IMG/VR virus record: IMGVR_UViG_3300025133_000019
Strand: one strand, 5' to 3'
Length of the DNA: 64,000 nt
Origin: a virus
Taxonomy: Duplodnaviria > Heunggongvirae > Uroviricota > Caudoviricetes
Shown here piece after piece: positions 2,658-49,288 of the stretch; the first letter of the stretch is position 1, and each line of letters starts with the position of its first letter. The position numbers and the translations under genes are program-made. The notes beneath the pieces were generated by a model that was not told the DNA's origin, ran no database searches, and saw only the letters and a program-made list of their open reading frames with translations.

Positions 2658-2686
2658 TTGACATTGATACTAAATTAGTGTAGTAT
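2658..2686 (+). promoter_or_regulatory. sigma70-type promoter of the tRNA-Asn unit
   Basis: TTGACA-17 nt-TAGTAT; same GTGTAGTATTAGTA context recurs at 48335-48368. Confidence 0.7.
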
Positions 2687-2764
2687 TAGTATGTCGAACA
2701 AAGAAAAATACTGCAAAAGTATTAACTTTACCGAGGGGAATGTATGCGAGACATCCTATAAATC

Positions 2765-2818
2765 ATGAAAAGACTGGGCAACCTAAATAATAACAATTTT
2801 GAGGCCGGGGTCTTTTGA
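2765..2818 (+). CDS. Asn-rich leader peptide MKRLGNLNNNNFEAGVF
   Basis: Codons AAC CTA AAT AAT AAC AAT; ORF runs through antiterminator segment 2803-2811; start coupled to upstream mini-ORF 2744-2761 (SD GAGGGG). Confidence 0.7.
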   Translation: MKRLGNLNNNNFEAGVF

Positions 2819-2832
2819 CGCAAAAAATACTT

Positions 2833-2862
2833 GCCCCGGTCTTTTTGACCGGGGCTTTTTTT
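2833..2862 (+). terminator. attenuator terminator before tRNA-Asn
   Basis: GCCCCGGTC-TTTTT-GACCGGGGC followed by T7, ending 2 nt before the tRNA. Confidence 0.9.
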
Positions 2863-2864
2863 AT

Positions 2865-2936
2865 TCACCCGTAGCTGAGAGGTTATAGCGCTTGGCGGTT
2901 AACCAAGATACGTGGGTTCGATTCCTACCGGGTGAT
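2865..2936 (+). tRNA. tRNA-Asn(GTT)
   Basis: TCACCCG/CGGGTGA acceptor (U1:A72), CTTGG-CGGTTAA-CCAAG arm, TTCGATT T loop; atypical G33 and U73. Confidence 0.85.
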
Positions 2937-2941
2937 CTTTT

Positions 2942-2970
2942 AACCTCTGTTCCCAGGAGCAGAGGTTTTT
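2942..2970 (+). terminator. intrinsic terminator after tRNA-Asn
   Basis: AACCTCTG...CAGAGGTT plus T run. Confidence 0.7.
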
Positions 2971-2997
2971 ATTTTTCTCTTTATTTCCTGTTTATAT

Positions 2998-3621
2998 ATG
3001 ACAACAAAAAAAGAGAAAATATATAAATTAAAGTATGATTATAGCAAAATACAAGAGGATATAAACGCAGGGCTGGGTTACGCACAGGTTAGAGCTAAGT
3101 ACGGAATAAGTTTTGCAGCGTTGCACAAATCGGCAAAGAAGGGAAGAATACGATTTATGACCCACTCCGAGAAAGCTAGATGGAAAACAGCTAGGGGCCT
3201 CAATCACTCTCCTAAAATGACTCCTGAATACAAAAAGAAAATCTCGGATTCAATGAAAAAGGGCCACGCCGAAGGCAGAGCCCATAACATAGGTTCGTCC
3301 AGGTGGAACAATGAGGAAAGCTACCCCGAAAAATTCTTCAAGAAAGTAATAAGTAATCATTTTGAAGACCAAGATTACCGTTATGAGCTGCCCTGTGGCA
3401 TATACTCTCTGGATTTCGCTTGGGAACATAAGAAAAAGGTTATAGAGATAGATGGTGACCAGCACCAAAGATTCGAGGAATACATAGCTAGGGATAAAAG
3501 AAAAGATGCTTACTTGAAATCTACTGGGTGGGATCTACTTAGAATTCCGTGGAAAGAGTTTTACCACAACACAAAAGAATACATCCAAATAGCTAAAGAT
3601 TTCATAGACGGGTCTATCTAA
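2998..3621 (+). CDS. DUF559/Vsr-like PD-(D/E)XK endonuclease with NUMOD3-like motif (homing-endonuclease-like)
   Basis: KKKISDSMKKGH motif; YSLDFAWEHKKKVIEIDGDQH; DKRKDAYLKSTGWDLLRI. Confidence 0.75.
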   Translation: MTTKKEKIYKLKYDYSKIQEDINAGLGYAQVRAKYGISFAALHKSAKKGRIRFMTHSEKARWKTARGLNHSPKMTPEYKKKISDSMKKGHAEGRAHNIGSSRWNNEESYPEKFFKKVISNHFEDQDYRYELPCGIYSLDFAWEHKKKVIEIDGDQHQRFEEYIARDKRKDAYLKSTGWDLLRIPWKEFYHNTKEYIQIAKDFIDGSI

Positions 3622-4126
3622 AGCTTTTGGAATATCTAGATTTACTGGAATCTCCGGCAAGACCTGTTTTGATAACTTGGGAATACACAGAAAAATCTAT
3701 TATCTTTCCATTTAACAGATTCCAGTAATGAGGTAGTCGGTAAAAATCTTTCTGGAGTTTTGGGTCAAGAGAATCAAAATAGCTTTTCCTGTCTTCGTCG
3801 TTAAAAGGATCTAGCCCTGTTTCTCTCATTTGTTTGAATTCTTCTTTGTGAAAATCCCCGTAACTTAGCATGGGTTTGTCTAGCTTAAAATAACCGGATT
3901 CCCTGGAAACCTTGAAATCTTGGTAGTTGTTTTCAATCCAATCTCTAAAATCCGCAGCTATAACACCGCAGTTGTCCCGTATGCATCCGTATTTAATTTC
4001 GTCTTGATGAGTGTTAACAAACTCTTGAATAGCTTTCTTTTCTTGTTCGGATAAATGCTCTTGAGAATAACGGGATAACCCACTGTTGGCAATAACAACC
4101 ATTTTGCTTAAAATTCCCATACCCAA
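3614..4126 (-). CDS. hypothetical protein, paralog of 17578..18075
   Basis: Shared TGL.P..DRK..Y.SLDP....DF...PH.WN.LN.K.ID motif. Confidence 0.7.
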   Translation of the reverse strand: MGMGILSKMVVIANSGLSRYSQEHLSEQEKKAIQEFVNTHQDEIKYGCIRDNCGVIAADFRDWIENNYQDFKVSRESGYFKLDKPMLSYGDFHKEEFKQMRETGLDPFNDEDRKSYFDSLDPKLQKDFYRLPHYWNLLNGKIIDFSVYSQVIKTGLAGDSSKSRYSKSFR

Positions 4127-4211
4127 AATAAAAATAAAGAGACTATTTCATTGACTCGTACTAAGTTATGTTTTAGAATAGTATTAACTTAACTATAAAC
4201 AAAGGACTTGC

Positions 4212-4553
4212 ATGAAGGAAGTTATTTCCCTTAATGGTACTCGAAGAGAAATTCTGCTTGACCCAGAACGAACCAACTTGAGTTTGGTTCTCAGTATTAG
4301 TGGATCTAAATTGACCAGATTCCATATCTACCTAGACGGGTCAGTAGTATTTCGCAGTTTTATTCAAGGAAAAGATAAATCTGGAGCGGATACATATGGA
4401 GACTCCTTTGTCACATTCTTTGAGCAGTATAGATGTAATCAAGGATTTCCGAGGGATGGATTGGATCGTAGAAATAGGAGATGGTCAAGTATCTGGTTTA
4501 ACAGGTTGGACTATCCAAGAATTCTGGAATCACAAAGGTTGGAACACAAGTGA
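4212..4553 (+). CDS. hypothetical protein (C-terminal frame uncertain)
   Basis: ORF with AAAGGA SD and TTGACT-17-TAGAAT promoter upstream. Confidence 0.45.
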   Translation: MKEVISLNGTRREILLDPERTNLSLVLSISGSKLTRFHIYLDGSVVFRSFIQGKDKSGADTYGDSFVTFFEQYRCNQGFPRDGLDRRNRRWSSIWFNRLDYPRILESQRLEHK

Positions 4554-4650
4554 GTAGTTCCCAAGCTATCAAAATTTCTTATCCTGGAGGAGAAAATCTT
4601 CAGTTTCCGAATGGATGTATTAAAATTAGGATTACCAATAAGGATCAGTT

Positions 4651-5325
4651 ATGTCACGTAAACTTATTTTCATCAAAGACTTAAAGCCTTTAACTGCTTT
4701 GTCAGATGATTTCAGCTTTGAAAAAGTGGTTGTATATTATAGCAATAAACTAGGAGTATTCAGTCCAGTAACTTCTGAGACAATGCTATACAGTATATTC
4801 GGAACTAGTCTGACTTCCCCAGAATCCGTGGATACAAAGTCAAGAGACTGGTGCTTGGATTTGGCTAAGGATTCTGGAGCTTTGGCGGTAAGACAATACG
4901 ACACTTTTGACGATAAGAGCTTGGCTATTCAGTATTTCATCAGAAAAGGGGAAATGAACGAAGCCAGATCCAGAGAAGTGGGGATTAAACCTGTAGAGTC
5001 CCTAAATCCAAATCTTATATTAATCCGTGATAAAGACAGCAAATTCTTTACTATTGGTCACAGCCATCATGACTCTGGAGCGATAAAGGGTTATGTTCTG
5101 TATAACTATAAGGAAGAGAAAGTAGCAGAGGATAGTCTGTTGAGAAGCCCTAATGACCTTAGCGTAGAAAGTCTTATCGAAAGGGCGTTATCTTTAAACG
5201 TGTTAAACCCGGAAAACGAGATCTATATTTATGATTCGATAAAAGAGTTATTGTGGGATAAAAAGCAATTTGCTAATTACTGGAGTGTTATAGAAGAACT
5301 GGACAGGAAACATGGGAATATTTGA
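4651..5325 (+). CDS. hypothetical protein
   Basis: 224-aa ORF overlapping the next gene. Confidence 0.6.
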   Translation: MSRKLIFIKDLKPLTALSDDFSFEKVVVYYSNKLGVFSPVTSETMLYSIFGTSLTSPESVDTKSRDWCLDLAKDSGALAVRQYDTFDDKSLAIQYFIRKGEMNEARSREVGIKPVESLNPNLILIRDKDSKFFTIGHSHHDSGAIKGYVLYNYKEEKVAEDSLLRSPNDLSVESLIERALSLNVLNPENEIYIYDSIKELLWDKKQFANYWSVIEELDRKHGNI

Positions 5326-5710
5326 TAGAGCAAAAAGGATAGTTAAATCTAAAATTAATTCCGCACTGGATAACCTAGACATAGATTTAGGATTCGGGGA
5401 TTCTGAAGACTATAAGTCTGATCTAAGTGACGAAGAAATGGAAGATATTTTAAGGACAGCGGGTTATTATGATGCTCCTTGTGCTGTTGATTTAGAGTTG
5501 GAGAAGCAACTCAAGCAAGCTTATAATAAACTAGGAGTTCTTCCGGCTATGCCACTTAGTCAAATAGAGAAAGCTTTTAAAAAAGAAATTGTTAAATTTC
5601 ACCCAGATAAATTCCCCGGAGACTCAAAGAAACGGGAAAAAGCTACCAAAGTATCTCAAAGCCTTAGTGAAGCTATTTCGTTAATAAGAAAGCACCACCC
5701 CATAAAATAA
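5312..5710 (+). CDS. J-domain (DnaJ-like) protein
   Basis: AYNKLGV...IEKAFKKEIVKFHPDK with HPD motif. Confidence 0.8.
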   Translation: MGIFDRAKRIVKSKINSALDNLDIDLGFGDSEDYKSDLSDEEMEDILRTAGYYDAPCAVDLELEKQLKQAYNKLGVLPAMPLSQIEKAFKKEIVKFHPDKFPGDSKKREKATKVSQSLSEAISLIRKHHPIK

Positions 5711-5749
5711 AGAATTGAAGAATACTTTGAGCTGTGCTAACCTGTAGTT

Positions 5750-6358
5750 ATGGAATCTTTAATAAAACACTTGCTAAACATATCGTTAGACCTAGATTTT
5801 GACACCGGATTTACCTTTACCAGCGGTTTAAAAAGTCCTATCTACTGTGACAACAGACTTTTATATGGTGACATAGAAGCCAGAGAAAAAGTAGTTGCCG
5901 AGTTCTGCGATTTAATTCCTACTCAAAATCCTAGTAATACCGTGATAGCAGGAATTGCTACAGCTAGTATAGGGTGGGGAGCAATTGTAGCCGATAGACT
6001 CAAACTTCCCTTTGCTTATGTACGTCCGAAAGCTAAAGAACACGGGGCACAACGAAAAATAGAGGGTGCCAGTGTTCAAGATAAAAAAGTAATTCTAATA
6101 GAGGATACCATAACAACTGGAGCAAGTTCAGCGGAAGCTATAACGGAACTTATTAATGATGGTGCTGATGTGACAGCTTGTTTATCAGTATTTTCTTATA
6201 GATTCCATTCAGTTGACCGGGCTTTCAAACCTCTAGGAATAATGCCCATTCCTTTGGTATCGTTTCAAGACCTCATTGACTATCTGAAAGAGAATAAAGA
6301 GGTTCAAGACGATAACATAAAAAAATTGCTGGAATGGTACGGCAACAAAAACTTGTAA
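5750..6358 (+). CDS. pyrE: orotate phosphoribosyltransferase
   Basis: FTFTSGLKSPIYCDNR, YVRPKAKEHG, ILIEDTITTGAS PRPP-binding motif. Confidence 0.93.
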   Translation: MESLIKHLLNISLDLDFDTGFTFTSGLKSPIYCDNRLLYGDIEAREKVVAEFCDLIPTQNPSNTVIAGIATASIGWGAIVADRLKLPFAYVRPKAKEHGAQRKIEGASVQDKKVILIEDTITTGASSAEAITELINDGADVTACLSVFSYRFHSVDRAFKPLGIMPIPLVSFQDLIDYLKENKEVQDDNIKKLLEWYGNKNL

Positions 6359-6381
6359 TAACACAACACTAAATACTTGTA

Positions 6382-7476
6382 ATGATAACAGGAATTCTAG
6401 ACAACAAAAGATACTTTATCAGAGACATTTTAAGCAATGATCCCAGAGATTTTTTGCCTATTACTATGGTTACGGGATAGCAGTAGTAGAGGATCAAGAA
6501 CTGTGTGACCGGGATAACCCGAGATTTTATATCACAGCACGAAATTCGGAAGTCTCTTTTGGAACTATTTGTGATGGAATGGCTGATTCGACGACTTTTA
6601 AAGAGGCGTTGGAAGAAATAGTAAGGCAAATTAGATATGTGGAAAAATTGTAGTGAAATAGTTTTTTTAAATCGTACTAGTATGGGATTGGACTCTTCTA
6701 ACCTCAACCCTGATCTTATTATCAGCAGAGGAGAGGATTGGATTGAAGTATACAACTCTCAACCCTTAGCTAGTATTGTTGTGTTAAAAGGTCCCCGAGA
6801 TCCCCAAGAACTCAAGGAAAAGAGTTATACCATAGAAGGTCACACAGATTTTTTAGACGATAGATTGAAAAAGCACTTAGACAAAGGTTACACCGTTGTT
6901 CAATGCCGAGATTTTAAGGTAAAAAGAGAGGTTATCGAGAAAGGTGAGGATTATGTTAATTGGTCTAAAGTAAAACATATTGAGTATCTTGGTGAAGGTT
7001 ATATCAGTGCTAACGCAATGAAACCCGAGCTATGCTTAGTCGAAAAAGAGGACAGGGTTCTTATATTAAGTACTGATGATAACTCTTTTATGATGACTGA
7101 TACAGACGGAAATGTTGAATACACTGTGGAAGCAAACCCGGTTAACCTGAAAAGACTCTGCCATGAATACGGGTTAAAGATCTTCCAATTTGTAAATAAA
7201 ATTGATAAGTACCAAGCTTTATATAACTATGTGAAAAAGAAAAACTCCAGGGTTTTCCATTATCGAGATCTAGACACAAATTCAGTGTTTGAGTCTAAAG
7301 AAGAACTTGATTTAGAGGACCACACCAGACTAGAAAAAGTTGACGAAGAAGTTTATAGAGACCATACAATACAAATTTTAAAGTCAAATTCTGAGGTTAC
7401 CAAAAAAGCTAAACTGAAATATAGTAATGCCAGAAAAATAGATGAACATCTACTTAACAAGAAGACAACTGTATGA
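6382..7476 (+). CDS. hypothetical protein; track ORF 6637..7476 probably extends to ATG 6382 via two homopolymer indels
   Basis: Open reading continues across T6 (~6450) and A5 (~6645) runs with frame changes. Confidence 0.5.
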
Positions 7477-8558
7477 ATGATATTCTAATTGTAGGCGGGT
7501 CTTTTGATGGTAATTCCGGAAAACCTTCTAAAATAGTTTCCGGGCTAGCCGAGTCTTTTGATAACCCAAGAGTTGTTAATGGGGGCCACATAGATCTGGT
7601 AAGAAATCTTAGTTTAGACGGCGTTAAGTGCTTGGTATGGATGCCTAATATTGACAATTCTGAACCAAAAATTCTATTAGATATAAAGAAACGGTCTCCT
7701 CATCTTCTTTTAGTGTCTTCAAAACGAGTTGTAGAAAAAGAGTACTCACATTTTGATATTATATCCAGGCTATTAAAAACAAGATCTAACTTAGGGATTA
7801 TGGTAACCAAGGCAAATGACCTGTATAATTTTGAACTTCTCGATCCTCTGGGTAATTCGTTTTGTAGTACCAGCGATATAAAGACTTTTTCTAGCTCTTT
7901 GAACAAAAGAGTAGAATTTCTTCTAAATATTAAACGGGAAAGTTTTCAAGGAGATCCAGGCTTTTCGGAAGAGACCTTAGCTCAGGCTCAAAGTGAAATT
8001 AAGGGCGATTATATAGAATTAGTGAAAATGTACGCCCAGGAGTTTACAGAACATGTAAACGCAATTAACCCGAGCAGATTTTTGGGTAACACTAGCACAC
8101 GCTGCATGCAAGGATTTCCTTCTCAACGAGGGTCCGGAAGAGGTGAAATATTGGTGTCACGGAGGAACGTGGATAAAGAAACTTTAAGTAAAAAAGATTT
8201 CGTTCCTCTAGGAAACATTCCTAATTGTTATGGATTCGGACCTAATAGATTTTATATAGGCAGTAACAAACCTTCTGTGGATTCTCCTATTCAATATAGA
8301 TTATATGAATCTTTGTTAAACATAAATTTCATGATTCATGGTCATGTTTATGTAGAAAACGCAGAAACAACACAAGAAATAATCCCGTGTGGGGGATTAC
8401 AAGAAGTAGACGAGGTCCTTAGTATTGTTACTGACCCTATTACAACCTCTTTCGTGGTTAATCTAAGGGGACACGGATTTCTAGCAGGCGGTCACACCGT
8501 AAATGACCTAAAAGGTCTCAAATTCGTTTCTAGGGGATTACCCGAGGTTCACAAATAA
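7473..8558 (+). CDS. class II aldolase/adducin-domain protein
   Basis: C-terminal PSVDSPIQ..LY, MIHGHVY, NLRGHG motifs. Confidence 0.65.
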   Translation: MNDILIVGGSFDGNSGKPSKIVSGLAESFDNPRVVNGGHIDLVRNLSLDGVKCLVWMPNIDNSEPKILLDIKKRSPHLLLVSSKRVVEKEYSHFDIISRLLKTRSNLGIMVTKANDLYNFELLDPLGNSFCSTSDIKTFSSSLNKRVEFLLNIKRESFQGDPGFSEETLAQAQSEIKGDYIELVKMYAQEFTEHVNAINPSRFLGNTSTRCMQGFPSQRGSGRGEILVSRRNVDKETLSKKDFVPLGNIPNCYGFGPNRFYIGSNKPSVDSPIQYRLYESLLNINFMIHGHVYVENAETTQEIIPCGGLQEVDEVLSIVTDPITTSFVVNLRGHGFLAGGHTVNDLKGLKFVSRGLPEVHK

Positions 8559-8708
8559 TGCTAGTAGATTTTCATTGTCACTTAGATCTGAATAAAGATT
8601 GGAAAGAGCTTACTGAGAAAGCTGTTTTCGTACTCTCTGTTTGCAATCTGGTGTGAATTTACGAAGAAAGAATACGAACCACAATTGTTTTTAGCTATGG
8701 GTAGATAA
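8558..8708 (+). pseudogene. truncated TatD-family nuclease fragment
   Basis: MLVDFHCHLDL start, stop after 32 codons, second frame ending LFLAMG. Confidence 0.55.
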
Positions 8709-8711
8709 TAT

Positions 8712-9407
8712 CTATCTTGATCCGGGAAGTCCGGGCATACTCCCAGCATATCCAGCATCTCTTCTTTTTACCTCTTTTACCACATCTTTTGCGGTAACAA
8801 CATCAGATTCTTCAGACATTTCCATATAAACTTTAACAGAGGTTTCTATTATAGAGCCTATGAATTTATTTTGTTCGGTAGGGTCGTTAAATGTCCATCC
8901 TCGTTTTAAATATTTCCACAGCCTTGTTAAAGCCGAATAGGGCTGATCGCCAGTATTCTTAGTTTCTATGGAGTTTCCAGTTTGAGAGATATAGATATTT
9001 ACATCTGGGTCGTAAGGACTGTGCTCGTTTGGCCCAGAGCATACCGCATAACCGTTAGCTACGCTCCAATCATGAGTATCTATAATTTCTTTAGGACTGC
9101 CCCATTTGAACAGTAAGAATTGAAGCTTTCTTCCTTCGCAGTTAAAATCAAAAAGTGATCTTTGTATTGCCGGAAACGATAGAGTAGCAGTAGCTTTTGA
9201 TTCAAATTTAACAAGATCCTCCATCTTTCTAAAGACTATATCGAAATCGTTATAATCTAACCCCTGTCTTATAGAGTGTATAGATGATCCAGTTATAAAA
9301 ACTTGGGTATGAAGATTAGGGATTCCTAAGTCTTCCCCCAGTCTCTTGATGATGCTAAAAACATGGGAAATAGTTCCGTGTACCTTATCTTTTTGTTTAT
9401 TAACCAT
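8712..9407 (-). CDS. Pol-beta-superfamily nucleotidyltransferase (class II CCA/poly(A)-polymerase head-like)
   Basis: FITGSSIHS...NDFDIVF (GS..DxD), IIDTHDWSV resembling the RRDFT motif. Confidence 0.6.
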   Translation of the reverse strand: MVNKQKDKVHGTISHVFSIIKRLGEDLGIPNLHTQVFITGSSIHSIRQGLDYNDFDIVFRKMEDLVKFESKATATLSFPAIQRSLFDFNCEGRKLQFLLFKWGSPKEIIDTHDWSVANGYAVCSGPNEHSPYDPDVNIYISQTGNSIETKNTGDQPYSALTRLWKYLKRGWTFNDPTEQNKFIGSIIETSVKVYMEMSEESDVVTAKDVVKEVKRRDAGYAGSMPGLPGSR

Positions 9408-9418
9408 AATAAAATCCT

Positions 9419-9961: not shown

Positions 9962-10019
9962 AACTCTCCTAAATAATTATATAGATTATAGTTCCAATTG
10001 GAAGAGCATGACATAAAAA

Positions 10020-11480
10020 TTACACAGCCTCCAAAAGTTTAAGCTCCGCAGAAAAATAAAAATTTTCCTTTAAAACTTCTGCCCAACTATACGGGCGAGG
10101 GTCTCGGCTCGTCAAAGTCGATAATCGCTCTCTATTTTGATTTAAGTACTTCTTAACCAAAATAGAAAGGATGCTAAATCTTGATAAATAATTGGAACTA
10201 ATCTCAGGTAAAGAACTTCTTCCCTTCACAGATCTAGCTCCATTGATATCAGCATGGGATTTTAATCCACACGCCAGACATCGGAATCTATCCTGATTCC
10301 TATTCTTTTTATCTAGGTAACCGCATTTATTACACTCTTGAGAAGTATAAGCTGGATTAACTTTTGTAATTTTTATTCCTAGCAGTTCCTGGACCGAGTT
10401 TAATTTGTCCAATAAAACTTTCTTTCCATAATTATTATAGAGTCTTTTATAACTCCTTCCTGCTTTTATTTGTCTTAAATCTAAGTCTTCTATTACAATT
10501 TCTGAGGGGTTATGAATTTCTATTAATCTGTTTACAATCCTGTTAACCTCATTTTTAATTAGGGATCTCGACTTTCTAATCAAGGTTTCTAGTCTGTCAG
10601 AATTTAAGGACATTCCAATTTTATTTCTCTCTTTTCGAATTCTGTTGATTTCTTCGATTACTTCTTTTAACTTGGAAATAAATTTAGTGCCGAAGGCACC
10701 TCCTTCGGAGTCAAACACGAAATCATCTCGGAACCCTAAGTCAAGTCCAATCACTTTCCCTGAAGAATTGTAAGGCTCTTTTGCCAAATCCTTTACCAAC
10801 TTGAACTCAAGATTTCCATTTCTTTTCAAGTGGATTTGTGTAATAGCTTTCAAACTGCCTTGTCTAGAATTGAAATAAGGATTTACATTTAAAGGAATTC
10901 GAACGGGTTTATTTTTTGTTGAGGTAGAAACTCTTAGCCAGTAGTCGAATGTAGTAGCGCCCAATTCCTGTTTGCTATGAATTTCACAAACTTTATGATC
11001 CAAAACCATATTTATTCTCTTGAAACTAGGCTTACTGACTCGTTTCAGGGCTTGATGAAAGATCTTTCTGCTTGTTTTCAAATTTTCTGTAGAGTAGAAA
11101 ACCCCTTTTTCCGAAGTGAACGCAGGAGAGGACCAAAATTTATATTTATTAATCGTATAAAGTATTCTCTTTTGTTCTTTAGGTAAATTAGATTTTGAAA
11201 TGGTTTTTCTTATAGAGTTCTGTAAATTTGAAATAAAACTTTGAAGTTGGCTTACAACTTGCGCTCTTATTGTTTGCGTGTAACGAGAGGAGAGATCTGT
11301 TTTAATTCTATGCCCAGAAAAGTTTTTAAACTTGTTAAATTTAGAATATCTGAAAAAATAGTTCCATTGATCACGGGATACATCCTCTGCGGTGGCCCGA
11401 TAACTAGGGAACACCCTTTTAATTTTTTCTAGTTTAACTTGATTAGAAAAATTTTTTAATCCGTAAGCTCTAAGTGCCAT
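10020..11480 (-). mobile_element. tnpB: TnpB-family RNA-guided endonuclease (IS200/IS605-like orfB), no tnpA in window
   Basis: RuvC-I IGLDLG, RuvC-II IVIEDL, Zn ribbon YTSQECNKCG..FRCLACG, RuvC-III HADINGA. Confidence 0.88.
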
Positions 11481-26192: not shown

Positions 26193-26221
26193 TTGACACT
26201 GATACACAATATGAGTATGAA
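26193..26221 (+). promoter_or_regulatory. sigma70-type promoter of the Ile/Met tRNA unit
   Basis: TTGACA-17 nt-TATGAA. Confidence 0.6.
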
Positions 26222-26240
26222 ACTCAAAGGAACCTCTTAC

Positions 26241-26267
26241 ATAGCTATGATTATTATGCGGTTGTAG
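26241..26267 (+). CDS. Ile/Met-rich leader peptide (I A) M I I M R L; start uncertain (26211, 26241 or 26247)
   Basis: ATA GCT ATG ATT ATT ATG CGG TTG TAG; AAAGGA at 26226-26231; stop lies in antiterminator segment. Confidence 0.65.
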   Translation: MAMIIMRL

Positions 26268-26296
26268 GGGTTTTTGTTTCTCCTTTGGTTAAAGCT

Positions 26297-26327
26297 AAAG
26301 ACCCCTCATCTCCGAGGGGTCTTTTTT
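26297..26327 (+). terminator. attenuator terminator before tRNA-Ile
   Basis: AAAGACCCCTC-ATCTCC-GAGGGGTCTTT plus T run. Confidence 0.9.
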
Positions 26328-26333: not shown

Positions 26334-26405
26334 TGGCGTATAGTCTAACGGTTAGGTCGCTACTCTGATAAAGTAGAAGTCTAGGTTCAATTCCTGGTAC
26401 GCCGA
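26334..26405 (+). tRNA. tRNA-Ile(GAT)
   Basis: CTACT-CTGATAA-AGTAG anticodon arm, TTCAATT T loop, A73. Confidence 0.9.
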
Positions 26406-26412
26406 TATACTA

Positions 26413-26485
26413 GGCAAGGTAGTTCAGTTGGTAGAACGCATAGCTCATATCTATGAAGTCGGGAGTTCGATCCTCTCTCTTGCTA
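26413..26485 (+). tRNA. tRNA-Met(CAT) elongator (or lysidine-type Ile2)
   Basis: CATAG-CTCATAT-CTATG; lacks initiator GGG/CCC pairs. Confidence 0.85.
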
Positions 26486-26490
26486 TTTAT

Positions 26491-26564
26491 CGTGGCGTAG
26501 CTCAGTTGGTTAGAGCATCATCCTTATAAGGTGAGAGTCGTGAGTTCAAGCCTCACCGCCACGA
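26491..26564 (+). tRNA. tRNA-Ile(TAT)
   Basis: CGTGGCG/CGCCACG acceptor, TCATC-CTTATAA-GGTGA arm. Confidence 0.88.
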
Positions 26565-26569
26565 CTAAA

Positions 26570-41984: not shown

Positions 41985-42212
41985 ATGATTCTGTCTCTTT
42001 TAATCGTATTACTTGGCTTCTATTTTGGTTTGTACTCGGAATTTAGAGATGATATTTCAATGGTGGGAGTAATGAGTTACGTGGTCTTAGTATTTGTGCT
42101 AAAGGTTCCTTATAATTCTCCTTGGTTCTACAAATCTTTGTTACATCAACTGTTATTTGGAGGAGTGTTAGGTACACTTGTATATTATGCCAGAAGTTAT
42201 TATAAAAAATGA
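41985..42212 (+). CDS. small multi-pass membrane protein
   Basis: Three hydrophobic segments. Confidence 0.55.
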   Translation: MILSLLIVLLGFYFGLYSEFRDDISMVGVMSYVVLVFVLKVPYNSPWFYKSLLHQLLFGGVLGTLVYYARSYYKK

Positions 42213-42963: not shown

Positions 42964-43167
42964 AACTAAGGAGATAAAATGGGTTTCTTGACTTTTTCAA
43001 CACTAATAGCATTATCATTTCATGGGTTTACAACTACTTGTATGTACACCATTTTTAAAGCGGGGGGGGTTCTCTTCTTTAGACCCCAATTTTATTTTTC
43101 TGGGCTGTGTAATAGCTTCAGCATTACTAACACACACTATCTGGAATATTCAAGTTAAAGACAAGTA

Positions 43168-44430
43168 ATGGGATTTCTAACTCTTAGTAGTGATAATCCA
43201 AATTTTTCTTTTGCTATAAAAAAGAATCCCGAAACCGGAATGCAGATAAAAAAATGCAGACGTGGGTTCATGTATGGGTGGTATTCAGATCCTTGTAGTT
43301 ATAACATCTATTTTAGGGAGGGGCTAAATTCAGTTTCTTTTAAACGGGATAAGCACGAAGATTTTGAATACATAAATACTACTAGATTTTCAAGCCCTCT
43401 TTTCGTTATTCAAGCTATTTCAGAGTTCTTTAGGCATAACACCAGAGAAATTGTTAGCGAAGACACTGAAGGCACGAACACAGTCAATATCAATATGATT
43501 TCGGTGAATGTTCCGTTGTACCTAAAATTCTTTTCCGAGCAATTCGACAACCTAGAAGTTAGTCATGCCGAGCTTGGACCTAAGAATTTCTCGGTTACAA
43601 TGAAATCCGCAGGTACTTTACACCGAGTCTTAAATTTGGCTCAGTTATTTGCTTTCTTTGTTATCCTTTCTAACCGAGATTACATTGAACTTAATAACGA
43701 TATTGTTACCAAGTACATGGAATGTTTGAATGCGCTAACTCCTCCTTACTTTATGACCTATTTGTTTAAAAAGAATTGTCTAAGAAGCAGAGGAGCTTTT
43801 GATAAAGAAAAGGCTGTGTTAGAGCAGAATCCTTTGTACGATTCTATGACCTTAAAATTTGGGGGTACTCTGCAAAACCGGATAGACGCTATTCTGGAAA
43901 GAACTTGTTTAGACGAATCTATTCTAGACATAGGGTGTGGTGAAGGAAACTATATTAGAGAGTTCTCAAAGCGTAATAAAGAAGTTAGATACATTGCTGT
44001 CGATACTGACGAAGAGACCTTAGAAAGGGCTAAAAAGGTCATTAGAAACAGAAATCTTGAGAATGTCTTGGTTTCCAGTAACCTAGATATAGTTATAGCG
44101 ACTGGAATCCCTGAAAACACAGAAGTTCTGTTAACCGAAGTTATTGAACACATGTCAGAACAAGAAGCCCAGGAATTGGTGAACAAGATTCTCGGTTTAA
44201 AAAACGTTAAGAGCTTGTTAATAACCACCCCTAATTTTGAGTTTAATCGGTTTTATCCTATGGACACGAAATTCAGGCATGATGACCATAAATTTGAGTT
44301 TACTCAAGAGCAATGGAGAGTGTTTATGGAACAATTCGAGCGCTACGGAGAAGTCGAGTACTTTAATATAGGTGATGAGGTTAACGGAATCCCCACTAGT
44401 CTAGGAGCTAAGATAACTAGGAAGGTTTAG
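43168..44430 (+). CDS. hen1: Hen1-like RNA 3'-terminal 2'-O-methyltransferase
   Basis: ILDIGCGEG SAM motif, EVIEH, ITTPNFEFN, FRHDDHKFEFT; adjacent to Pnkp. Confidence 0.85.
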   Translation: MGFLTLSSDNPNFSFAIKKNPETGMQIKKCRRGFMYGWYSDPCSYNIYFREGLNSVSFKRDKHEDFEYINTTRFSSPLFVIQAISEFFRHNTREIVSEDTEGTNTVNINMISVNVPLYLKFFSEQFDNLEVSHAELGPKNFSVTMKSAGTLHRVLNLAQLFAFFVILSNRDYIELNNDIVTKYMECLNALTPPYFMTYLFKKNCLRSRGAFDKEKAVLEQNPLYDSMTLKFGGTLQNRIDAILERTCLDESILDIGCGEGNYIREFSKRNKEVRYIAVDTDEETLERAKKVIRNRNLENVLVSSNLDIVIATGIPENTEVLLTEVIEHMSEQEAQELVNKILGLKNVKSLLITTPNFEFNRFYPMDTKFRHDDHKFEFTQEQWRVFMEQFERYGEVEYFNIGDEVNGIPTSLGAKITRKV

Positions 44431-44431
44431 T

Positions 44432-44776
44432 ATGGAAGATGTTAAGTTAACAGAAGAGCTGCTGCTAAAAATAGGAACGGACGAAGAAGACATTGGTACT
44501 CTTAGGCGAAACGGATTAATTGGTATTCCTCTAAGTATTTTTAGGTCCCAGAAGTGGTTCAAAACCCGCATGTTTAAGAATCTGGGAGAAATTAAGGAGA
44601 TAATGCATCAGAAGTGTGGCTATGGGGATGAGGAAGGTTATACGGCAATTTACGAATACCCAAGCGGGTACGGTCAGGTATGTGGGTATGATGAACACGG
44701 AAACCATATCTCAACTAGGGATGACGAACACCAAGACTTGGTAAGATATACACATAATGATAAGGGTTGCCAATAG
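44432..44776 (+). CDS. YD-repeat-like phage protein (paralog of 28286 and 61987-62544)
   Basis: LTEELLLKIG...RNGLIGIPL N-terminus; YDEHGN motif. Confidence 0.55.
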   Translation: MEDVKLTEELLLKIGTDEEDIGTLRRNGLIGIPLSIFRSQKWFKTRMFKNLGEIKEIMHQKCGYGDEEGYTAIYEYPSGYGQVCGYDEHGNHISTRDDEHQDLVRYTHNDKGCQ

Positions 44777-44814
44777 CCTTGACACATAAAGAATAAAAAT
44801 AGTACAATAAAAAC

Positions 44815-47385
44815 ATGGAAAATACAATTACAGTTGAACCAAATACTATTTTTTTATGTATTGGACCCACTAATTCTGGTAAAACTACTTTTATCAAGAA
44901 TTTGATTGCTAATAATAAAAAGAAGCTGGAGGGACTAAATGTTCAAATACTGGGGTCTGACCAAATAAGAAAAGAGCTTCTTGGGGAGGATTTGTTTAGA
45001 TATGATCCTAGAATGCTTGAAGCTAGCGATGCTACGTTCAGAGTATTTGAAGCTAAGTTAAAAGCGTTAACACAATACCCTATTAACGCAGACATTATTT
45101 TTCTTGATTGTACTTCTTTGCATCCTGACTTCAGGAAATTCGTAAGTAACACTGCAAAGGAAAGTTGCTACAATCTACAAGCCCTAGTTTTCAACTACAA
45201 AGACACCGAAGACCACATGAGGTATGCTCACGAAGGCTATGAACATCTAGTATACAGGAATCTCAAGAAGTTTAGAACAACAGTACTTCCCACTATTAAA
45301 GCCAAAGATTTTGATGGTCTAACTAAAATAAGGTCTAAAGACTTTGGTGACTGGGAACTCGGTCTAAAGAACTTTGATTTAGCTGAGAGTTACAAATTAG
45401 ATCCTGAGGTACATTATAGTATTATCGGAGATATCCATGGGTGCTTCGATGAATTTCAAGAACTGCTTTTAAAGCTCGGAAGTAAAATTGAGAATGGTAT
45501 TCTCATTCCTCCTGAAAACAGAAAGTTTATTAGTATAGGTGACCTGATTGATAAAGGCCCGGAAACTAAAAAAGTAGTAGACTTTGTTCTCAGAAATATC
45601 CAGCATTTCATTATTATCAGAGGAAATCACGAATACGGTAATTACCAGTATTTGACTGGTCAAATGAAGAAAGGGACCTGGACCCCTAAGTTTATTAATG
45701 AGTGGTTCGATACAATTAGGCTAGCCGAGCAAGATCCGGATTTAAAACAGAAACTACTTGAGCTAGTCGAATACTCTGCTCCTTTTGCGAGTCACCCGAA
45801 TTTTATCTGTACTCATGTTCCGTGTAAATCTAAATTTTTAGGTAGAGTCTCTAAAAAAGGGGTTAACGGTCAGGTAAGATGGAGCTATCCACATAGAGAA
45901 GATAGAACACTCGAAGAATACGCAGAACACCTTAAAGAGACCTTAAGCTACTTGAAAGAAGAGTCAGATTTTAATCTGCCTTATCATATCTTTGGTCATA
46001 TCGCTACTGCTAATACCATAAGGTATTCCAAAAAAATTGGTATTGACTTAGGGTGTTATAAGGGAGGAAAACTCCAAGCCGTAACATTTTACTCAGGAAG
46101 TAAAAAGCCTGAATTCTGTGAAGTAGAAAGTAAGCAACCCAAAGACCTTGAGGGATTACCAGATTTGACTCCTGCGCCTGTTCCGGTGGAACTAAATTTA
46201 GAAGATCTAGATCCTAAGGACATGGTTAAGATGAGGAAAATTTGCGCTAATAAAATAAATTTTCTTAGCGGTACGGTATGCCCAGCAGACAAAGATACTG
46301 AAACTAACGAACTAGAATCTCTAGAAAAAGGTTTGAACTACTTTAAAGACAACGGAGTAAACAAGGTTCACCTGCAAACCAAGTATATGGGAAGTAGAGG
46401 TACTGTGTACTTAACTCCAGATAATGAAACAAGTTTCGTTATTAGCAGAAACGGGTTCAAAATAGGATACCTAGATTTCAGCGATCAGTTCTCGATTCTT
46501 AGGGACAGGGTTAAAGAGTATTTCGACTGCGGTGCAGAAATAGTTATTATAGATGCCGAAATCATGCCTTGGGCTGCTATGGGTAAAGGGTTAATAGAAA
46601 AAGAGTTCGGGATAGTAGGAACAGGGTTAGCTTCAGAGCAAGACATATTAAAAAATTCCGGGTTTTACGAACAATTAGATTCTATGTCTTGCTCAACAGA
46701 ATTTATTGGCTACCTAGAAGACAAGAAAACTACTAGTAAAAAGGATCTTGTTGAGAAGTACGGACACTCTAAATTTTCGACTTACCGTGCTCTAGACGAA
46801 TCAGAGATTATAGAATCTTATACCGAGGACTTTTTGATTCAGCAGTATTTTGATCAACTAAAACTTTATGGAGAAGAAGGCGATTTGCATATAGAACCCT
46901 TCTGTCTGTTAAAAGTAGTTTATCCTGATAGTGAAACCACATTTTTTACAGAAACCAGTAAATCTATGTTTCAAAAAGTAAACCCCGAAGGTCGTAACTT
47001 AGAGGTTGACTTTAGCGATCCAGATTACCTGGAGAAAGCCCAAGCATTTTATGACGAACTTACTTTAAATATGGAAGGTATAGTGATTAAGCCAGAGATC
47101 ATGTGGACCCCTGGAATTGCTCCTTATATGAAAGTCAGAAATCCTCGATACCTCTCCATTATCTATGGGTATGACTATCAGAAAGACACTAAATTCCAAA
47201 GACTCATCAGGCAAAAGAATATCGCCAGAAAACTGAGGGCAAGTATCCAGGAGTACGAAACTGGAAAAAGTCTGTTAGAAGTCCCTTGGAAAGAAATAAA
47301 CAGTGAAAACACTAGGTATATTGGTTTGGTCTCTAAATTCATGAGGCTTGAGAAAAAAGCTGAATCCTTAGATCCTAGATTATGA
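44815..47385 (+). CDS. pnkp: polynucleotide kinase-phosphatase-ligase (bacterial Pnkp)
   Basis: GPTNSGKTT kinase; IIGDIHGC/IGDLIDKG/RGNHE phosphoesterase; TKYMGSR, EGIVIKP, KVRNPRYLSIIYG ligase. Confidence 0.93.
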   Translation: MENTITVEPNTIFLCIGPTNSGKTTFIKNLIANNKKKLEGLNVQILGSDQIRKELLGEDLFRYDPRMLEASDATFRVFEAKLKALTQYPINADIIFLDCTSLHPDFRKFVSNTAKESCYNLQALVFNYKDTEDHMRYAHEGYEHLVYRNLKKFRTTVLPTIKAKDFDGLTKIRSKDFGDWELGLKNFDLAESYKLDPEVHYSIIGDIHGCFDEFQELLLKLGSKIENGILIPPENRKFISIGDLIDKGPETKKVVDFVLRNIQHFIIIRGNHEYGNYQYLTGQMKKGTWTPKFINEWFDTIRLAEQDPDLKQKLLELVEYSAPFASHPNFICTHVPCKSKFLGRVSKKGVNGQVRWSYPHREDRTLEEYAEHLKETLSYLKEESDFNLPYHIFGHIATANTIRYSKKIGIDLGCYKGGKLQAVTFYSGSKKPEFCEVESKQPKDLEGLPDLTPAPVPVELNLEDLDPKDMVKMRKICANKINFLSGTVCPADKDTETNELESLEKGLNYFKDNGVNKVHLQTKYMGSRGTVYLTPDNETSFVISRNGFKIGYLDFSDQFSILRDRVKEYFDCGAEIVIIDAEIMPWAAMGKGLIEKEFGIVGTGLASEQDILKNSGFYEQLDSMSCSTEFIGYLEDKKTTSKKDLVEKYGHSKFSTYRALDESEIIESYTEDFLIQQYFDQLKLYGEEGDLHIEPFCLLKVVYPDSETTFFTETSKSMFQKVNPEGRNLEVDFSDPDYLEKAQAFYDELTLNMEGIVIKPEIMWTPGIAPYMKVRNPRYLSIIYGYDYQKDTKFQRLIRQKNIARKLRASIQEYETGKSLLEVPWKEINSENTRYIGLVSKFMRLEKKAESLDPRL

Positions 47386-47567
47386 GTTATAAAACCTGTA
47401 GTTGCGGGGAAGATTTTTTATGTCATGAAGATTATTTGGCTAAAACTACTGACTGTGGTACAATGGAATTTGAAGATGAAGTGTTTGTACTAAGAAATTG
47501 TAAAAAATGTTTGTCAACACTAACAACTGAAGATACCAAGGATTCAATATGCATAGAGAACCCCTAG
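47382..47567 (+). CDS. small Cys-rich protein
   Basis: CSCG...NCKKCLSTLT. Confidence 0.5.
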   Translation: MSYKTCSCGEDFLCHEDYLAKTTDCGTMEFEDEVFVLRNCKKCLSTLTTEDTKDSICIENP

Positions 47568-47809
47568 AAGAAATTATAAAAGCTCAAAGGATGGGGATAA
47601 TAGTCTTGTTTTTAGTGGCTTTAAGCTTTGGTATATTCGCAATGTGTCTGGAAAATAAAATGCATGATTTGGAAAATAAATTTATAGATACAAAATTAGA
47701 AAATTCTTTGCTGAAAAGCAGGCCCGGACTAGTTGTAAATAAGGCACACCTGGATCTAGTCTCCCTTTTCGCTAAAGATCTAAAAAAGTGTAACGATTCA
47801 AAAAGGTAG
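47549..47809 (+). CDS. membrane-anchored hypothetical protein
   Basis: Hydrophobic segment followed by coiled coil. Confidence 0.5.
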   Translation: MHREPLEEIIKAQRMGIIVLFLVALSFGIFAMCLENKMHDLENKFIDTKLENSLLKSRPGLVVNKAHLDLVSLFAKDLKKCNDSKR

Positions 47810-47816
47810 GACTAAC

Positions 47817-48197
47817 ATGAAAGAGAATTTCCATTTAAAAGTTGTAATAGCAGTTCTTATAGTATCTAACTGTTTGACAGCTTACAACATGATTGGCAGC
47901 AGATGGTGTGACCACTCTAACGATAAAACCGAGAGGTACGAAGAATTATTTAGTAGATTTAAACAAGTCAGAAAAAACTCCTATGATTTTGCAGAAAGAG
48001 TTAGGATTATAAGAGGGCAGTTTGAGACTGTTAATAGTAAACTCATAAACTCTAGAAATACGGTAAAATCTTTAGAGGAAAAAGCGGAATCTCTCCGAGA
48101 GGTTTGGAAGTCAGCTCAGAAACTGGTAATAGTTCAAAGAAAGAAGTTGGAATTACTAGCCGAGCCAGACCAAGAGATATCTTATTTTACGACGTAA
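47817..48197 (+). CDS. membrane-anchored coiled-coil protein
   Basis: VVIAVLIV segment then coiled coil; AGGA SD. Confidence 0.55.
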   Translation: MKENFHLKVVIAVLIVSNCLTAYNMIGSRWCDHSNDKTERYEELFSRFKQVRKNSYDFAERVRIIRGQFETVNSKLINSRNTVKSLEEKAESLREVWKSAQKLVIVQRKKLELLAEPDQEISYFTT

Positions 48198-48334
48198 AAT
48201 AAGAGAGTTCGAGGCTTATATGGACAAACAGGAGCTTAAAAAGATTGAAATAGAGAAGGGGACAGAAAAGCTTGTTAAATCAAATCAAATTTTAACAGAA
48301 ACTTGTGGAAAGAGCATAAAAATCGAGAAATAGG

Positions 48335-48363
48335 TTGACACTAATAGTTATTTGGTGTAGTAT
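48335..48363 (+). promoter_or_regulatory. sigma70-type promoter of the Gln/Cys/Leu tRNA operon
   Basis: TTGACA-17 nt-TAGTAT, same context as 2658. Confidence 0.75.
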
Positions 48364-48459
48364 TAGTACATAAGACTGAAGATTACAGGGTTACCGTTAT
48401 TTTGAGACACACCCCCTGCTATCACTCACTGGGTCTTATATTTTTTAAAGGATATAGAA

Positions 48460-48534
48460 ATGATTACAAGAAACGTTTTACAACAGTTATGTTTGCTCCA
48501 GCTAAGTATGCTGGGAGGTAAGGGCGTTTCGTAA
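48460..48534 (+). CDS. Leu/Gln/Cys-rich leader peptide MITRNVLQQLCLLQLSMLGGKGVS
   Basis: AAAGGA SD at 48447-48452; TTA CAA CAG TTA TGT TTG CTC CAG CTA; 3' half covers antiterminator segment. Confidence 0.8.
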   Translation: MITRNVLQQLCLLQLSMLGGKGVS

Positions 48535-48553
48535 AAACATTGCTATAACTACA

Positions 48554-48598
48554 AAAAAAGCCCCTTGTTTTCCAGATAGGAAGCAAGGGGCTTTTTTT
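48554..48598 (+). terminator. attenuator terminator before tRNA-Gln
   Basis: AAGCCCCTTGTTTTCC-AGATA-GGAAGCAAGGGGCTT plus T run. Confidence 0.9.
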
Positions 48599-48605
48599 GT
48601 GCCCT

Positions 48606-48677
48606 AGAGCCTTGGTGTAATTGGTAACACAGCAGACTTTGACTCTGCTATTCTGAGTTCGAATCTCAGGGGCTCTG
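48606..48677 (+). tRNA. tRNA-Gln(TTG)
   Basis: GCAGA-CTTTGAC-TCTGC; G73. Confidence 0.92.
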
Positions 48678-48684
48678 TATTGTT

Positions 48685-48756
48685 GACACGGTGTCCGAGT
48701 GGTTAGGGAGATGCCTGCAAAGCATCTTTACGTGAGTTCGAATCTCACCCGTGTCT
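48685..48756 (+). tRNA. tRNA-Cys(GCA)
   Basis: GATGC-CTGCAAA-GCATC; U73. Confidence 0.92.
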
Positions 48757-48759
48757 TAT

Positions 48760-48830
48760 AGAGGTATAGTGTAATGGTAACACGACAGACTCTGAATCTG
48801 TGGCTTCTGGTTCGACTCCAGATACCTCTG
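48760..48830 (+). tRNA. tRNA-Gln(CTG)
   Basis: ACAGA-CTCTGAA-TCTGT; G73. Confidence 0.92.
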
Positions 48831-48833
48831 CAT

Positions 48834-48917
48834 GGCGGTGTGTTGGAATTGGTATACATCTGAGTTTTAGAAACTCAGGCCCTTAAGGGATTGAGAGTTC
48901 GAATCTCTCCACCGTCA
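48834..48917 (+). tRNA. tRNA-Leu(TAG)
   Basis: TGAGT-TTTAGAA-ACTCA, long variable arm, A73. Confidence 0.9.
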
Positions 48918-48923
48918 TTACAT

Positions 48924-49008
48924 GGCTCCGTAGCCGAATTGGAATAGGCACTAGAGTTAAAATCTAGCGGACATCGTCCATTTGTGGGTTCAATCCCCAC
49001 CGGAGCTA
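48924..49008 (+). tRNA. tRNA-Leu(TAA)
   Basis: CTAGA-GTTAAAA-TCTAG, long variable arm, A73. Confidence 0.88.
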
Positions 49009-49023
49009 TTTTATAGTATATAA

Positions 49024-49112
49024 GCTGATGTGGCGGAATTGGTATACGGTACTTCCTTTCGGGAAGGAGACCTATTAATACGGTCACGAAGGTTCGAACC
49101 CTTCCATCAGCT
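49024..49112 (+). tRNA. atypical class II tRNA-like RNA: Leu-type body, TTC at anticodon position
   Basis: GCTGATG/CATCAGC acceptor, GGAATTGGTATAC D loop, ACTTC-CTTTCGG-GAAGG arm, 20-nt variable region, U73. Confidence 0.7.
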
Positions 49113-49118
49113 CTTTAT

Positions 49119-49200
49119 GCCAACGTGGTGAAACTAGAAGACACGCTAGACCTAGAATCTAGCGCCTTCGGGCATGCGAGTTCGACCCTCGCCGTTGGTA
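49119..49200 (+). tRNA. tRNA-Leu(TAG), second copy
   Basis: CTAGA-CCTAGAA-TCTAG (C33), variable arm, A73; D loop lacks GG. Confidence 0.8.
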
Positions 49201-49206
49201 CTACAT

Positions 49207-49288
49207 AGCAGTACGTTGGAATTGGAAGACATGCAAGACTAAGAATTTTGTGCCTTTTGGCGTGAGGGTTCGAATCCCGCCGTCGCTA
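49207..49288 (+). tRNA. tRNA-Leu(AAG), imperfect acceptor stem
   Basis: CAAGA-CTAAGAA-TTTTG, variable arm, TTCGAAT T loop; mismatches in acceptor and T stems. Confidence 0.65.

Follow-up and report, generated by a model that had tools for sequence, protein, structure and literature searches.

The DNA analysed here is a 64-kilobase (kb) stretch, called the window below, of an uncultured marine giant phage (IMG/VR record IMGVR_UViG_3300025133_000019). It has about 37% G+C, its open reading frames (ORFs) are dense under the standard genetic code, and assembly contigs of 347 and 374 kb carry identical genes. The window contains 13 transfer RNA (tRNA) genes in five blocks. Three of these blocks, for Asn (locus 1), Ile and Met (locus 2), and Gln, Cys and Leu (locus 3), are each preceded by a compact leader in which a promoter, a short ORF, an antiterminator segment and a U-tailed terminator follow one another up to the first tRNA gene. 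This order had been claimed in an earlier note on the same DNA and was confirmed at all three loci (Table 1).

The codons of each leader ORF match the tRNAs encoded just downstream. Among the 127,996 codon positions that the six reading frames of the window offer, the NNNN of locus 1, 68 nucleotides (nt) before tRNA-Asn, is the sole run of at least four Asn codons, and the LQQLCLLQL of locus 3 is the sole run of at least eight codons for Gln, Cys or Leu. Two runs of at least four codons drawn from Ile and Met contain both amino acids, and the MIIM of locus 2 is one of these. Each cognate run lies about 70–130 nt 5' of its matching tRNAs, on the same strand and in frame between a start and a stop codon, with a joint chance of about 1e-8 by our own estimate, which allows about 250 codon positions per upstream stretch. 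When every leader is compared with every tRNA set, the resulting matrix is strictly diagonal, and the leader regions before tRNA-Asp and the suppressor tRNA show nothing. The match reported in the earlier note is not due to chance: its codon runs are unique or near-unique, and each points to its own tRNAs.

Both Asn codons are used at locus 1, which has five in all, AAC at 2780 and AAT AAT AAC AAT at 2786–2797. The sensing run of locus 3 (48478–48504) draws on TTA, CAA, CAG, TGT, TTG, CTC and CTA, that is, both Gln codons, TGT and four Leu codons, with CTG appearing later in the ORF. All of these codons can be read by the downstream anticodons, provided that CTC is decoded either by the UAG tRNA or by the last, degenerate copy, a sequence that scores 17.3 bits against a tRNA-model cut-off of 29. 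The same block contains a 90-nt tRNA (49024–49113) whose long variable arm is Leu-like, whose D arm is weak and whose anticodon is UUC (Glu). The four Leu tRNAs counted in the earlier note reduce to three clear ones, the rest being this UUC tRNA, which the leader does not sample, and the degenerate copy.

The three leader peptides are unrelated to one another. The earlier note called the leader sequences unrelated and the loci independent, which goes slightly too far, since loci 1 and 3 have in common an exact 14-nt promoter box over the -10 region. Together with its -35 hexamer, this box occurs exactly twice in the window, each time before a putative tRNA attenuator, where shuffled sequences are expected to yield none.

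The leader ORFs begin 70–125 nt past a sigma-70-type promoter, and each terminator lies 170–260 nt past its own promoter. Stringent terminators are few on the + strand of the 64 kb: five were found, comprising those of the three leaders, the one that ends the Asn unit and one after a protein gene. Three of the five therefore abut tRNA blocks, with a promoter upstream and no long gene in between. They end 2, 6 and 5 nt before the first tRNA at loci 1, 2 and 3, which leaves no room for a separate tRNA promoter. With the terminator directly against the tRNA 5' end, RNase P would be expected to release the leader.

Table 1. Leader elements, terminators and tRNA genes of the window, with positions counted from its first letter.
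Feature	Position	Strand	Description
tRNA-Asp	2186		Block 1 of the window
Locus 1 promoter	2658–2691	+	TTGACA at 2658, 17 nt, TAGTAT; -10 region covered by the 14-nt box GTGTAGTATTAGTA common to locus 3
Locus 1 leader ORF	2765–2818	+	17 codons, MKRLGNLNNNNFEAGVF
Locus 1 segment 1	2766–2780	+	Pairs with segment 2, Asn codons in the loop; alternatively pairs with segment 3
Locus 1 segment 2 (antiterminator 5' strand)	2801–2817	+	GGCCGGGGTC; within the ORF, ends at its stop codon
Locus 1 intrinsic terminator	2833–2862	+	Hairpin 2833–2855 and T7; ends 2 nt before the tRNA
tRNA-Asn (GTT)	2865–2937	+	Only tRNA-Asn in the window
Operon-end terminator	2944–2965	+	Closes the Asn unit
Locus 2 promoter	26193–26221	+	TTGACA at 26193, 17 nt, TATGAA; read from the sequence
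Locus 2 leader ORF	26247–26267	+	ATG ATT ATT ATG CGG TTG TAG, MIIMRL
Locus 2 segment 2 (antiterminator strand)	26260–26276	+	Pairs with 26295–26312 or with segment 1 (26228–26245)
Locus 2 intrinsic terminator	26297–26327	+	Hairpin 26297–26324, core GACCCCTC / GAGGGGTC, T6; ends 6 nt before the tRNA
tRNA-Ile (GAT), tRNA-Met (CAT), tRNA-Ile (TAT)	26334–26565	+	
Locus 3 promoter	48335–48368	+	14-nt box identical to that of locus 1
Locus 3 leader ORF	48460–48534	+	24 codons; Shine-Dalgarno AAAGGA at 48447–48452, 7 nt before the ATG
Locus 3 segment 1	48489–48502	+	Lies in the sensing run; partner of the first part of segment 2
Locus 3 segment 2 (antiterminator strand)	48507–48530	+	Ends just 5' of the stop codon; pairs with 48557–48579
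Locus 3 intrinsic terminator	48553–48599	+	13-bp G-C core, lengthened by A/T-tract pairing; 5 nt before the first tRNA
Gln-TTG, Cys-GCA, Gln-CTG, Leu-TAG, Leu-TAA, 90-nt UUC tRNA, Leu-TAG	48605–49201	+	
Degenerate Leu-like tRNA-like sequence	49207–49288	+	Acceptor stem mismatched; anticodon loop UAA or AAG
CUA suppressor tRNA	59196		Block 5 of the window

Alternative pairings in the leader RNAs

At all three loci, a complement of the terminator 5' arm (segment 3) is found upstream, either overlapping the ORF stop codon, as at locus 2, or ending just before it. This complement, segment 2, would act as the antiterminator strand. Against dinucleotide shuffles, its presence has p values of 0.004, 0.05 and 0.003 at loci 1, 2 and 3, and two ordinary terminators of the window, taken as controls, give upstream-complement z scores of +1.05 and -0.2. 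The predicted energies of the 2:3 duplexes are near those of the terminator stems. They amount to -21.4 kcal/mol (z -4.3 against shuffles) beside a terminator stem of -21.9 at locus 1, to -17.2 (z -2.75) beside -20.3 at locus 2, and to about -22 (z -3.3) beside -29.8 at locus 3. The terminator stem of locus 1 has 9 bp, 8 of them G-C pairs, and a 5-nt loop.

Hairpins between segments 1 and 2 are also predicted at each locus, with energies of -13.8 to -15.4 kcal/mol that carry no shuffle comparison. At loci 1 and 3, where the 1:2 pairings amount to -14.4 and -13.8 kcal/mol, the sensing codons lie in or beside this hairpin. Segment 1 of locus 1 has a second option, a 1:3 pairing of -19.2 kcal/mol.

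The effect of a translating ribosome was modelled by folding the RNA up to the terminator loop with the ribosome footprint forced unpaired. At locus 2, segment 3 is paired at 0.97, 0.83 and 0.61 when the A site holds ATT, ATT and ATG, and at only 0.14–0.19 when it holds CGG, TTG or TAG, which amounts to a clean switch. Locus 3 shows a moderate switch, from 0.91–0.94 at TTA, TGT and TTG to about 0.6 at the stop codon. Masking gives an ambiguous picture at locus 1, since segment 3 is a second possible partner of segment 1. The mutually exclusive folds that the earlier note proposed to check are clean at locus 2 and in the relative described below, moderate at locus 3 and equivocal at locus 1.

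Two further observations concern the locus 2 leader. An in-frame ATA (26241–26243) lies two codons 5' of its ATG and would be translated only from an upstream start. Its stop codon is TAG (26265–26267), and the phage also encodes a CUA suppressor tRNA. If active, this suppressor would let ribosomes read past the TAG through both terminator arms and so turn attenuation off.

Similar leaders in a relative and in cultured phages

Six short contigs belong to a relative with a helicase of 70% identity. Its gene order is that of the window, with helicase, leader, tRNA-Ile-GAT and tRNA-Met-CAT in succession. DNA similarity between the two ends with the helicase gene and returns in the terminator and tRNA. 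The intervening leader cannot be aligned, and the survival of its Ile/Met codons agrees with the earlier note's expectation that codon identity would be kept despite sequence drift. The relative's promoter reads TTGACA-17-TAGTAT, and its ORF starts 7 nt past the -10 hexamer and is thus probably leaderless. The ORF encodes MKFM(NI)2-3MLC, with its TGA inside segment 2, and is followed by an antiterminator and a terminator that differ in sequence from those of the window and follow a like logic. No 1:2 hairpin is predicted in this leader. Under ribosome masking, arm pairing falls from 0.75 on the Ile codons to 0.02–0.06 at the last codons, and when it is not translated this leader adopts the antiterminator as its default fold. 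Strain variants of the relative are one in-frame 6-nt AACATT unit apart, (Asn-Ile)2 versus (Asn-Ile)3. This repeat polymorphism alters the number of sensing codons in the leader.

The same design is present in the cultured Caulobacter phage phiCbK (JX100813, positions 51290–51640) and in six further Caulobacter and Brevundimonas phages. In phiCbK, a TTGACA-17-TAGGGT promoter is followed after 7 nt by a 32-codon ORF, codons 5–19 of which encode Y R Q F V R Q I Q V V R N I R. A terminator lies 3' of the ORF, and its 3' arm is nearly repeated (9/10 bases) within the ORF. Downstream of the terminator is a Tyr-like sequence, recognized by eye, at a place where ARAGORN calls a tRNA-Tyr in four of the related phages. 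The array continues with Phe, Val, Ile, Ile, Val, Gln, Gln, Ile, Arg, Arg and Gly. The leader is kept in CcrRogue, CcrBL10, CcrSC, CcrColossus and the Brevundimonas phages Kikimora and Bambus. Leaders of this family start about 7 nt past the -10 hexamer, and this spacing suggests that they are probably leaderless.

Four phages of the family have an annotated tRNA-Asn, and in these, 14–15 consecutive leader codons all belong to amino acids of the array. Their leaders contain 3, 3, 2 and 1 Asn codons, and the three phages with no tRNA-Asn have one each, which hints that the number of Asn codons tracks the presence of tRNA-Asn. Neither attenuators nor leaders are mentioned in the phiCbK genome paper. 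A second phiCbK leader (JX100813 48022–48177) places a TTGACA promoter, a 20-codon ORF and a terminator before tRNA-Glu and tRNA-Asp. Its match is poor, with 3 of 19 post-start codons encoding Glu or Asp and five encoding Thr.

Before the phiCbK-family genomes were added, the tRNA blocks of all loci gathered, 33 in number, were ranked blind. Codon enrichment combined with a terminator was seen only in the three loci of the window and that of the relative. An unrelated 282-kb IMG/VR phage with 18 tRNAs has no such leaders and shows plain Bacteroidota-type promoters. Phage T5 likewise has no comparable leaders before its tRNA genes. The small ORFs between T5 tRNA genes are not codon-matched. A Cys-rich, zinc-ribbon-like ORF of 42 amino acids before tRNA-Cys is an exception that is probably unrelated.

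Further homologues were sought through genes near the loci, including that of the RNA-repair protein Pnkp. No close relative was present in a collection of phage isolates or in IMG/VR when the latter was queried by Pnkp, by the helicase and by a tRNA-Ile pattern. A search of IMG/VR with the promoter-box pattern returned three unrelated loci only, none of them with tRNAs. A metagenome scan queried with Pnkp gave only distant phosphatase matches, and Pnkp homologues (36–40% identity) lie in gene-dense surroundings that lack tRNA gaps. A homologue search with the gene 3' of locus 3 found only itself, and the strain-level copies of locus 3 are 100% identical and thus carry no information.

Probable attenuation of tRNA genes and its alternatives

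Taken together, the three loci are quite likely to represent classical ribosome-mediated (leader-peptide) transcription attenuation, applied to tRNA genes and forming a demand-sensing feedback loop. This reading is drawn from sequence and predicted folding. The earlier note had already recognized the logic of trp-, his- and leu-type attenuation, and every prediction of that model that was testable at the sequence level held.

For leader translation, the direction of the switch, its kinetics and its physiological trigger, we infer the following course. The host RNA polymerase would start at the strong sigma-70-type promoter and transcribe the short leader, while a ribosome would translate the mini-ORF, in which codons decoded by the tRNAs just downstream are abundant. 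With quick decoding, the ribosome would reach the stop codon and cover segment 2, the 3:4 terminator would form 2–6 nt ahead of the first tRNA, and transcription would end. When the cognate charged tRNA is short, the ribosome would instead stall on the sensing codons, which would break the 1:2 pairing and leave segment 2 free. Free segment 2 could then pair with the emerging terminator 5' arm, letting the polymerase read into the tRNA genes. Decoding of Asn, Ile/Met and Gln/Cys/Leu codons would in this way be topped up by the phage only on demand. As the product is the sensed molecule, the arrangement would constitute a negative feedback loop.

Demand could stem from the AT-rich codon use of the phage, from decay of host tRNAs or from their cleavage by host anticodon nucleases. 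ATA accounts for 41% of Ile codons and TTA for 30% of Leu codons in the phage. Window positions 43168–47385, 1 kb upstream of the Gln/Cys/Leu tRNA locus, encode a bacterial-type RNA repair pair, a Hen1 methyltransferase (Hen1_N, 212 bits) and a Pnkp kinase-phosphatase-ligase (PNKP_ligase, 101 bits). Together with a peptidyl-tRNA hydrolase (PTH2) gene and the suppressor tRNA, these features suggest demand or damage as the trigger. The link to anticodon nucleases is plausible through the adjacent Hen1/Pnkp genes.

Several observations weigh against this interpretation. The locus 2 ORF is just six codons long and its Shine-Dalgarno sequence is weak or distant, and the ORF of locus 1 has no such sequence of its own. 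The ATG of locus 1 overlaps the TGA of an ORF at 2691–2768 and lies 3 nt past the stop of a mini-ORF (2744–2761) that has a GAGGGG Shine-Dalgarno sequence. These weak initiation signals are tempered by the finding that just 36% of the long ORFs in the window have a Shine-Dalgarno sequence. Sampling of the downstream tRNAs is also incomplete. The locus 2 leader was proposed to match Ile, Met and Ile, and this stands for ATT and ATG; it has no ATA, yet the operon holds Ile-TAT. The locus 3 leader contains no Glu codon though one tRNA has a UUC anticodon. The relative's leader contains Asn codons that its tRNAs do not match, and its Ile-TAT lies elsewhere, behind a plain promoter with no such leader. 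Nor do the tRNA-Asp and the suppressor tRNA of the window, or the tRNA-Tyr of the window's own genome, which lies 7.7 kb past the window end, have such a leader, so that leaders are absent from three of the six tRNA blocks seen (five in the window plus tRNA-Tyr). These blocks and the relative's Ile-TAT indicate that attenuation serves some tRNA blocks and not all. For loci 1 and 3, no relative was found. The ambiguous masking at locus 1 adds to these points, as does the equilibrium folding of the complete leader RNA, which always yields the terminator. A switch would therefore have to be kinetic, chosen before segment 4 is transcribed, as in trp.

Equilibrium folding is also one of the points in favour of a system with the same elements and a different polarity or signal. 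Such a system would sense general translation capacity, ribosome–polymerase coupling or Rho access; efficient translation might then raise tRNA transcription, or the terminator might act as a fixed dimmer with a minor role for the ORF. The antiterminator adopted by default in the relative's untranslated leader and the lack of a clean switch at locus 1 would fit as well. This is nevertheless unlikely, since a general sensor needs no codon match, and the match found here is locus-specific and recurs in other phage lineages. The ORFs moreover stop 15–30 nt before the terminator 5' arm, so a ribosome cannot melt it directly, and with segment 2 under the terminating ribosome, termination is predicted when translation is fast. 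A direct role of the RNA, in which the codon run supplies specifier triplets that bind the anticodons of free tRNAs in a T-box-like manner with no ribosome, is very unlikely. The leader triplets are complementary to the downstream anticodons by construction, and translation-initiation signals at loci 1 and 2 are weak. However, neither a T-box (RF00230) nor any other riboswitch model matches the three leaders, whether at the gathering score or with E values of up to 1, and locus 3 has a good Shine-Dalgarno sequence. The triplets are contiguous and run in one frame from an ATG to a stop within segment 2 or directly past it, both at the three loci and in the leaders of the relative and the phiCbK family. 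From what is established about T-box structure, 3-nt pairings lacking a scaffold are moreover too weak.

Coincidence would mean that meaningless ORFs and the ordinary terminators of upstream units happen to precede tRNAs that are transcribed by leak-through. The genome is AT-rich, with short ORFs and AAT-rich stretches common, and half of the tRNA blocks have no leader. Even so, this explanation is highly improbable and already strongly disfavoured: the codon runs are unique in 128,000 positions and each stands next to its cognate tRNAs, the control terminators have no upstream complement of their arm, the leader terminators lie at short distances past promoters of their own, and the design recurs in the relative and in cultured phages. 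The least probable alternative, which we regard as having next to no likelihood, is that the mini-ORFs encode functional micropeptides, with the codon match arising as a by-product. The peptides of the three loci are unrelated, that of the relative has only its composition in common with the window's, and function is unlikely for a six-codon product. With demand-sensing attenuation as the preferred reading at the three loci, it is also likely that many phages, including those resembling phiCbK, use such leader attenuators, with a tRNA block being transcribed only when its own decoding capacity falls.

Known systems and neighbouring genes

Leader-peptide attenuators of enterobacteria include trpL, hisL, pheL and leuL as well as the multivalent leaders thrL (Thr/Ile) and ilvGMEDA (Ile/Leu/Val). 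The phage leaders resemble these in having a promoter-proximal mini-ORF with clustered regulatory codons, mutually exclusive predicted 1:2, 2:3 and 3:4 pairings, a segment 2 that would lie under a ribosome at the stop codon, and an intrinsic terminator just before the regulated genes. Locus 3 is multivalent, as are the ilv and thr leaders. They differ in belonging to a phage, in targeting tRNA genes and not biosynthetic enzymes, in having the sensed molecule as output, and in being very short (6–24 codons). To our knowledge, every leader-peptide attenuator described so far acts on genes of amino-acid biosynthesis or on protein genes related to them.

In Rfam, loci 2 and 3 come closest to Phe_leader (RF01859), with sub-threshold matches that extend from ORF start to terminator end. 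The cut-offs of Phe_leader, Thr_leader (RF00506) and Trp_leader (RF00513) are not reached; the best scores, 27.2 and 26.7 bits against 55, are about half the Phe_leader cut-off and reflect architectural resemblance, not membership. T-box riboswitches likewise sense the supply of specific tRNAs through a choice between terminator and antiterminator upstream of translation-related genes, mainly genes for synthetases, biosynthesis and transporters. They bind uncharged tRNA directly, by means of Stem I, a single specifier codon and the T-box sequence, and require no translation; none of these features was detected in the three leaders.

Very short ORFs, some of them probably leaderless and composed of codons for a single amino acid, also control a downstream operon in the mycobacterial attenuators built on polycysteine mini-ORFs (bioRxiv 10.1101/834739). 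The relative's and phiCbK-family leaders are likewise probably leaderless, whereas the mycobacterial ones control bacterial cysteine-metabolism genes and not phage tRNA genes. Clusters of phage tRNA genes act as counter-measures to the loss or cleavage of host tRNAs, an example being the phage tRNAs considered in connection with PARIS AriB (PMC12409363). As in the phage tRNA clusters that counter such cleavage, the tRNA genes here are grouped, and they lie beside Hen1/Pnkp. Among the papers returned by the literature searches, mostly as titles and abstracts, none describes a demand-sensing attenuator for phage tRNA genes. A full-text literature search, whose scope left out most subscription journals, found no trp-style attenuation of tRNA genes or in phages. 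The mechanism class is textbook knowledge, and its probable use on phage tRNA genes is the new point, for which no prior description was found.

If the proposed mechanism is correct, trp/his-type attenuation would gain a new class of target and provide direct homeostatic control of tRNA supply. Phage tRNA genes would be conditionally expressed, a point relevant to the question why phages carry tRNAs and to their response to immunity that targets tRNAs. Such a loop would let the phage cope with mismatched codon usage, host shut-off and defences based on anticodon nucleases, and would explain why small phage tRNA blocks are grouped by amino acid. Leaders would also serve as readable labels of the codons that limit a phage in its host and could aid the annotation of odd tRNAs, such as the UUC long-arm tRNA of locus 3. 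The presence of the design in cultured Caulobacter and Brevundimonas phages makes the proposal directly testable at the bench.

By its layout, an element at 59297–59776, just 3' of the CUA suppressor tRNA, resembles a sensor of amber suppression that follows the attenuator principle of the three loci. It consists of a TTGACT-17-TATACT promoter, an M-E-N-T-TAG ORF and a terminator (59379–59428), and the PTH2 gene (Pfam 30 bits), which lies 3' of this terminator, has a TAG at its own codon 5. Readthrough of the TAG in the M-E-N-T ORF would carry the ribosome across the terminator. EF-Ts and a tyrosyl-tRNA synthetase-like protein are encoded 0.2–3.9 kb past the window end, near the tRNA-Tyr with its plain promoter, and enlarge the translation-related gene load of the phage.

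Directly 3' of tRNA-Asn, a gene at 2998–3621 encodes a DUF559/Vsr-like endonuclease with 2107 representatives at E ≤ 0.001. It is probably a mobile nuclease gene of a kind often found beside phage tRNA genes, and with so widespread a family it offers no guide to synteny at locus 1. A serine-recombinase element is inserted between Hen1 and Pnkp in the 347-kb strain variant, and a transposase-like gene lies on the - strand of the window at 10020–11480 (PHROG transposase; listed as Cas12f1-like_TNB/TnpB on another contig).

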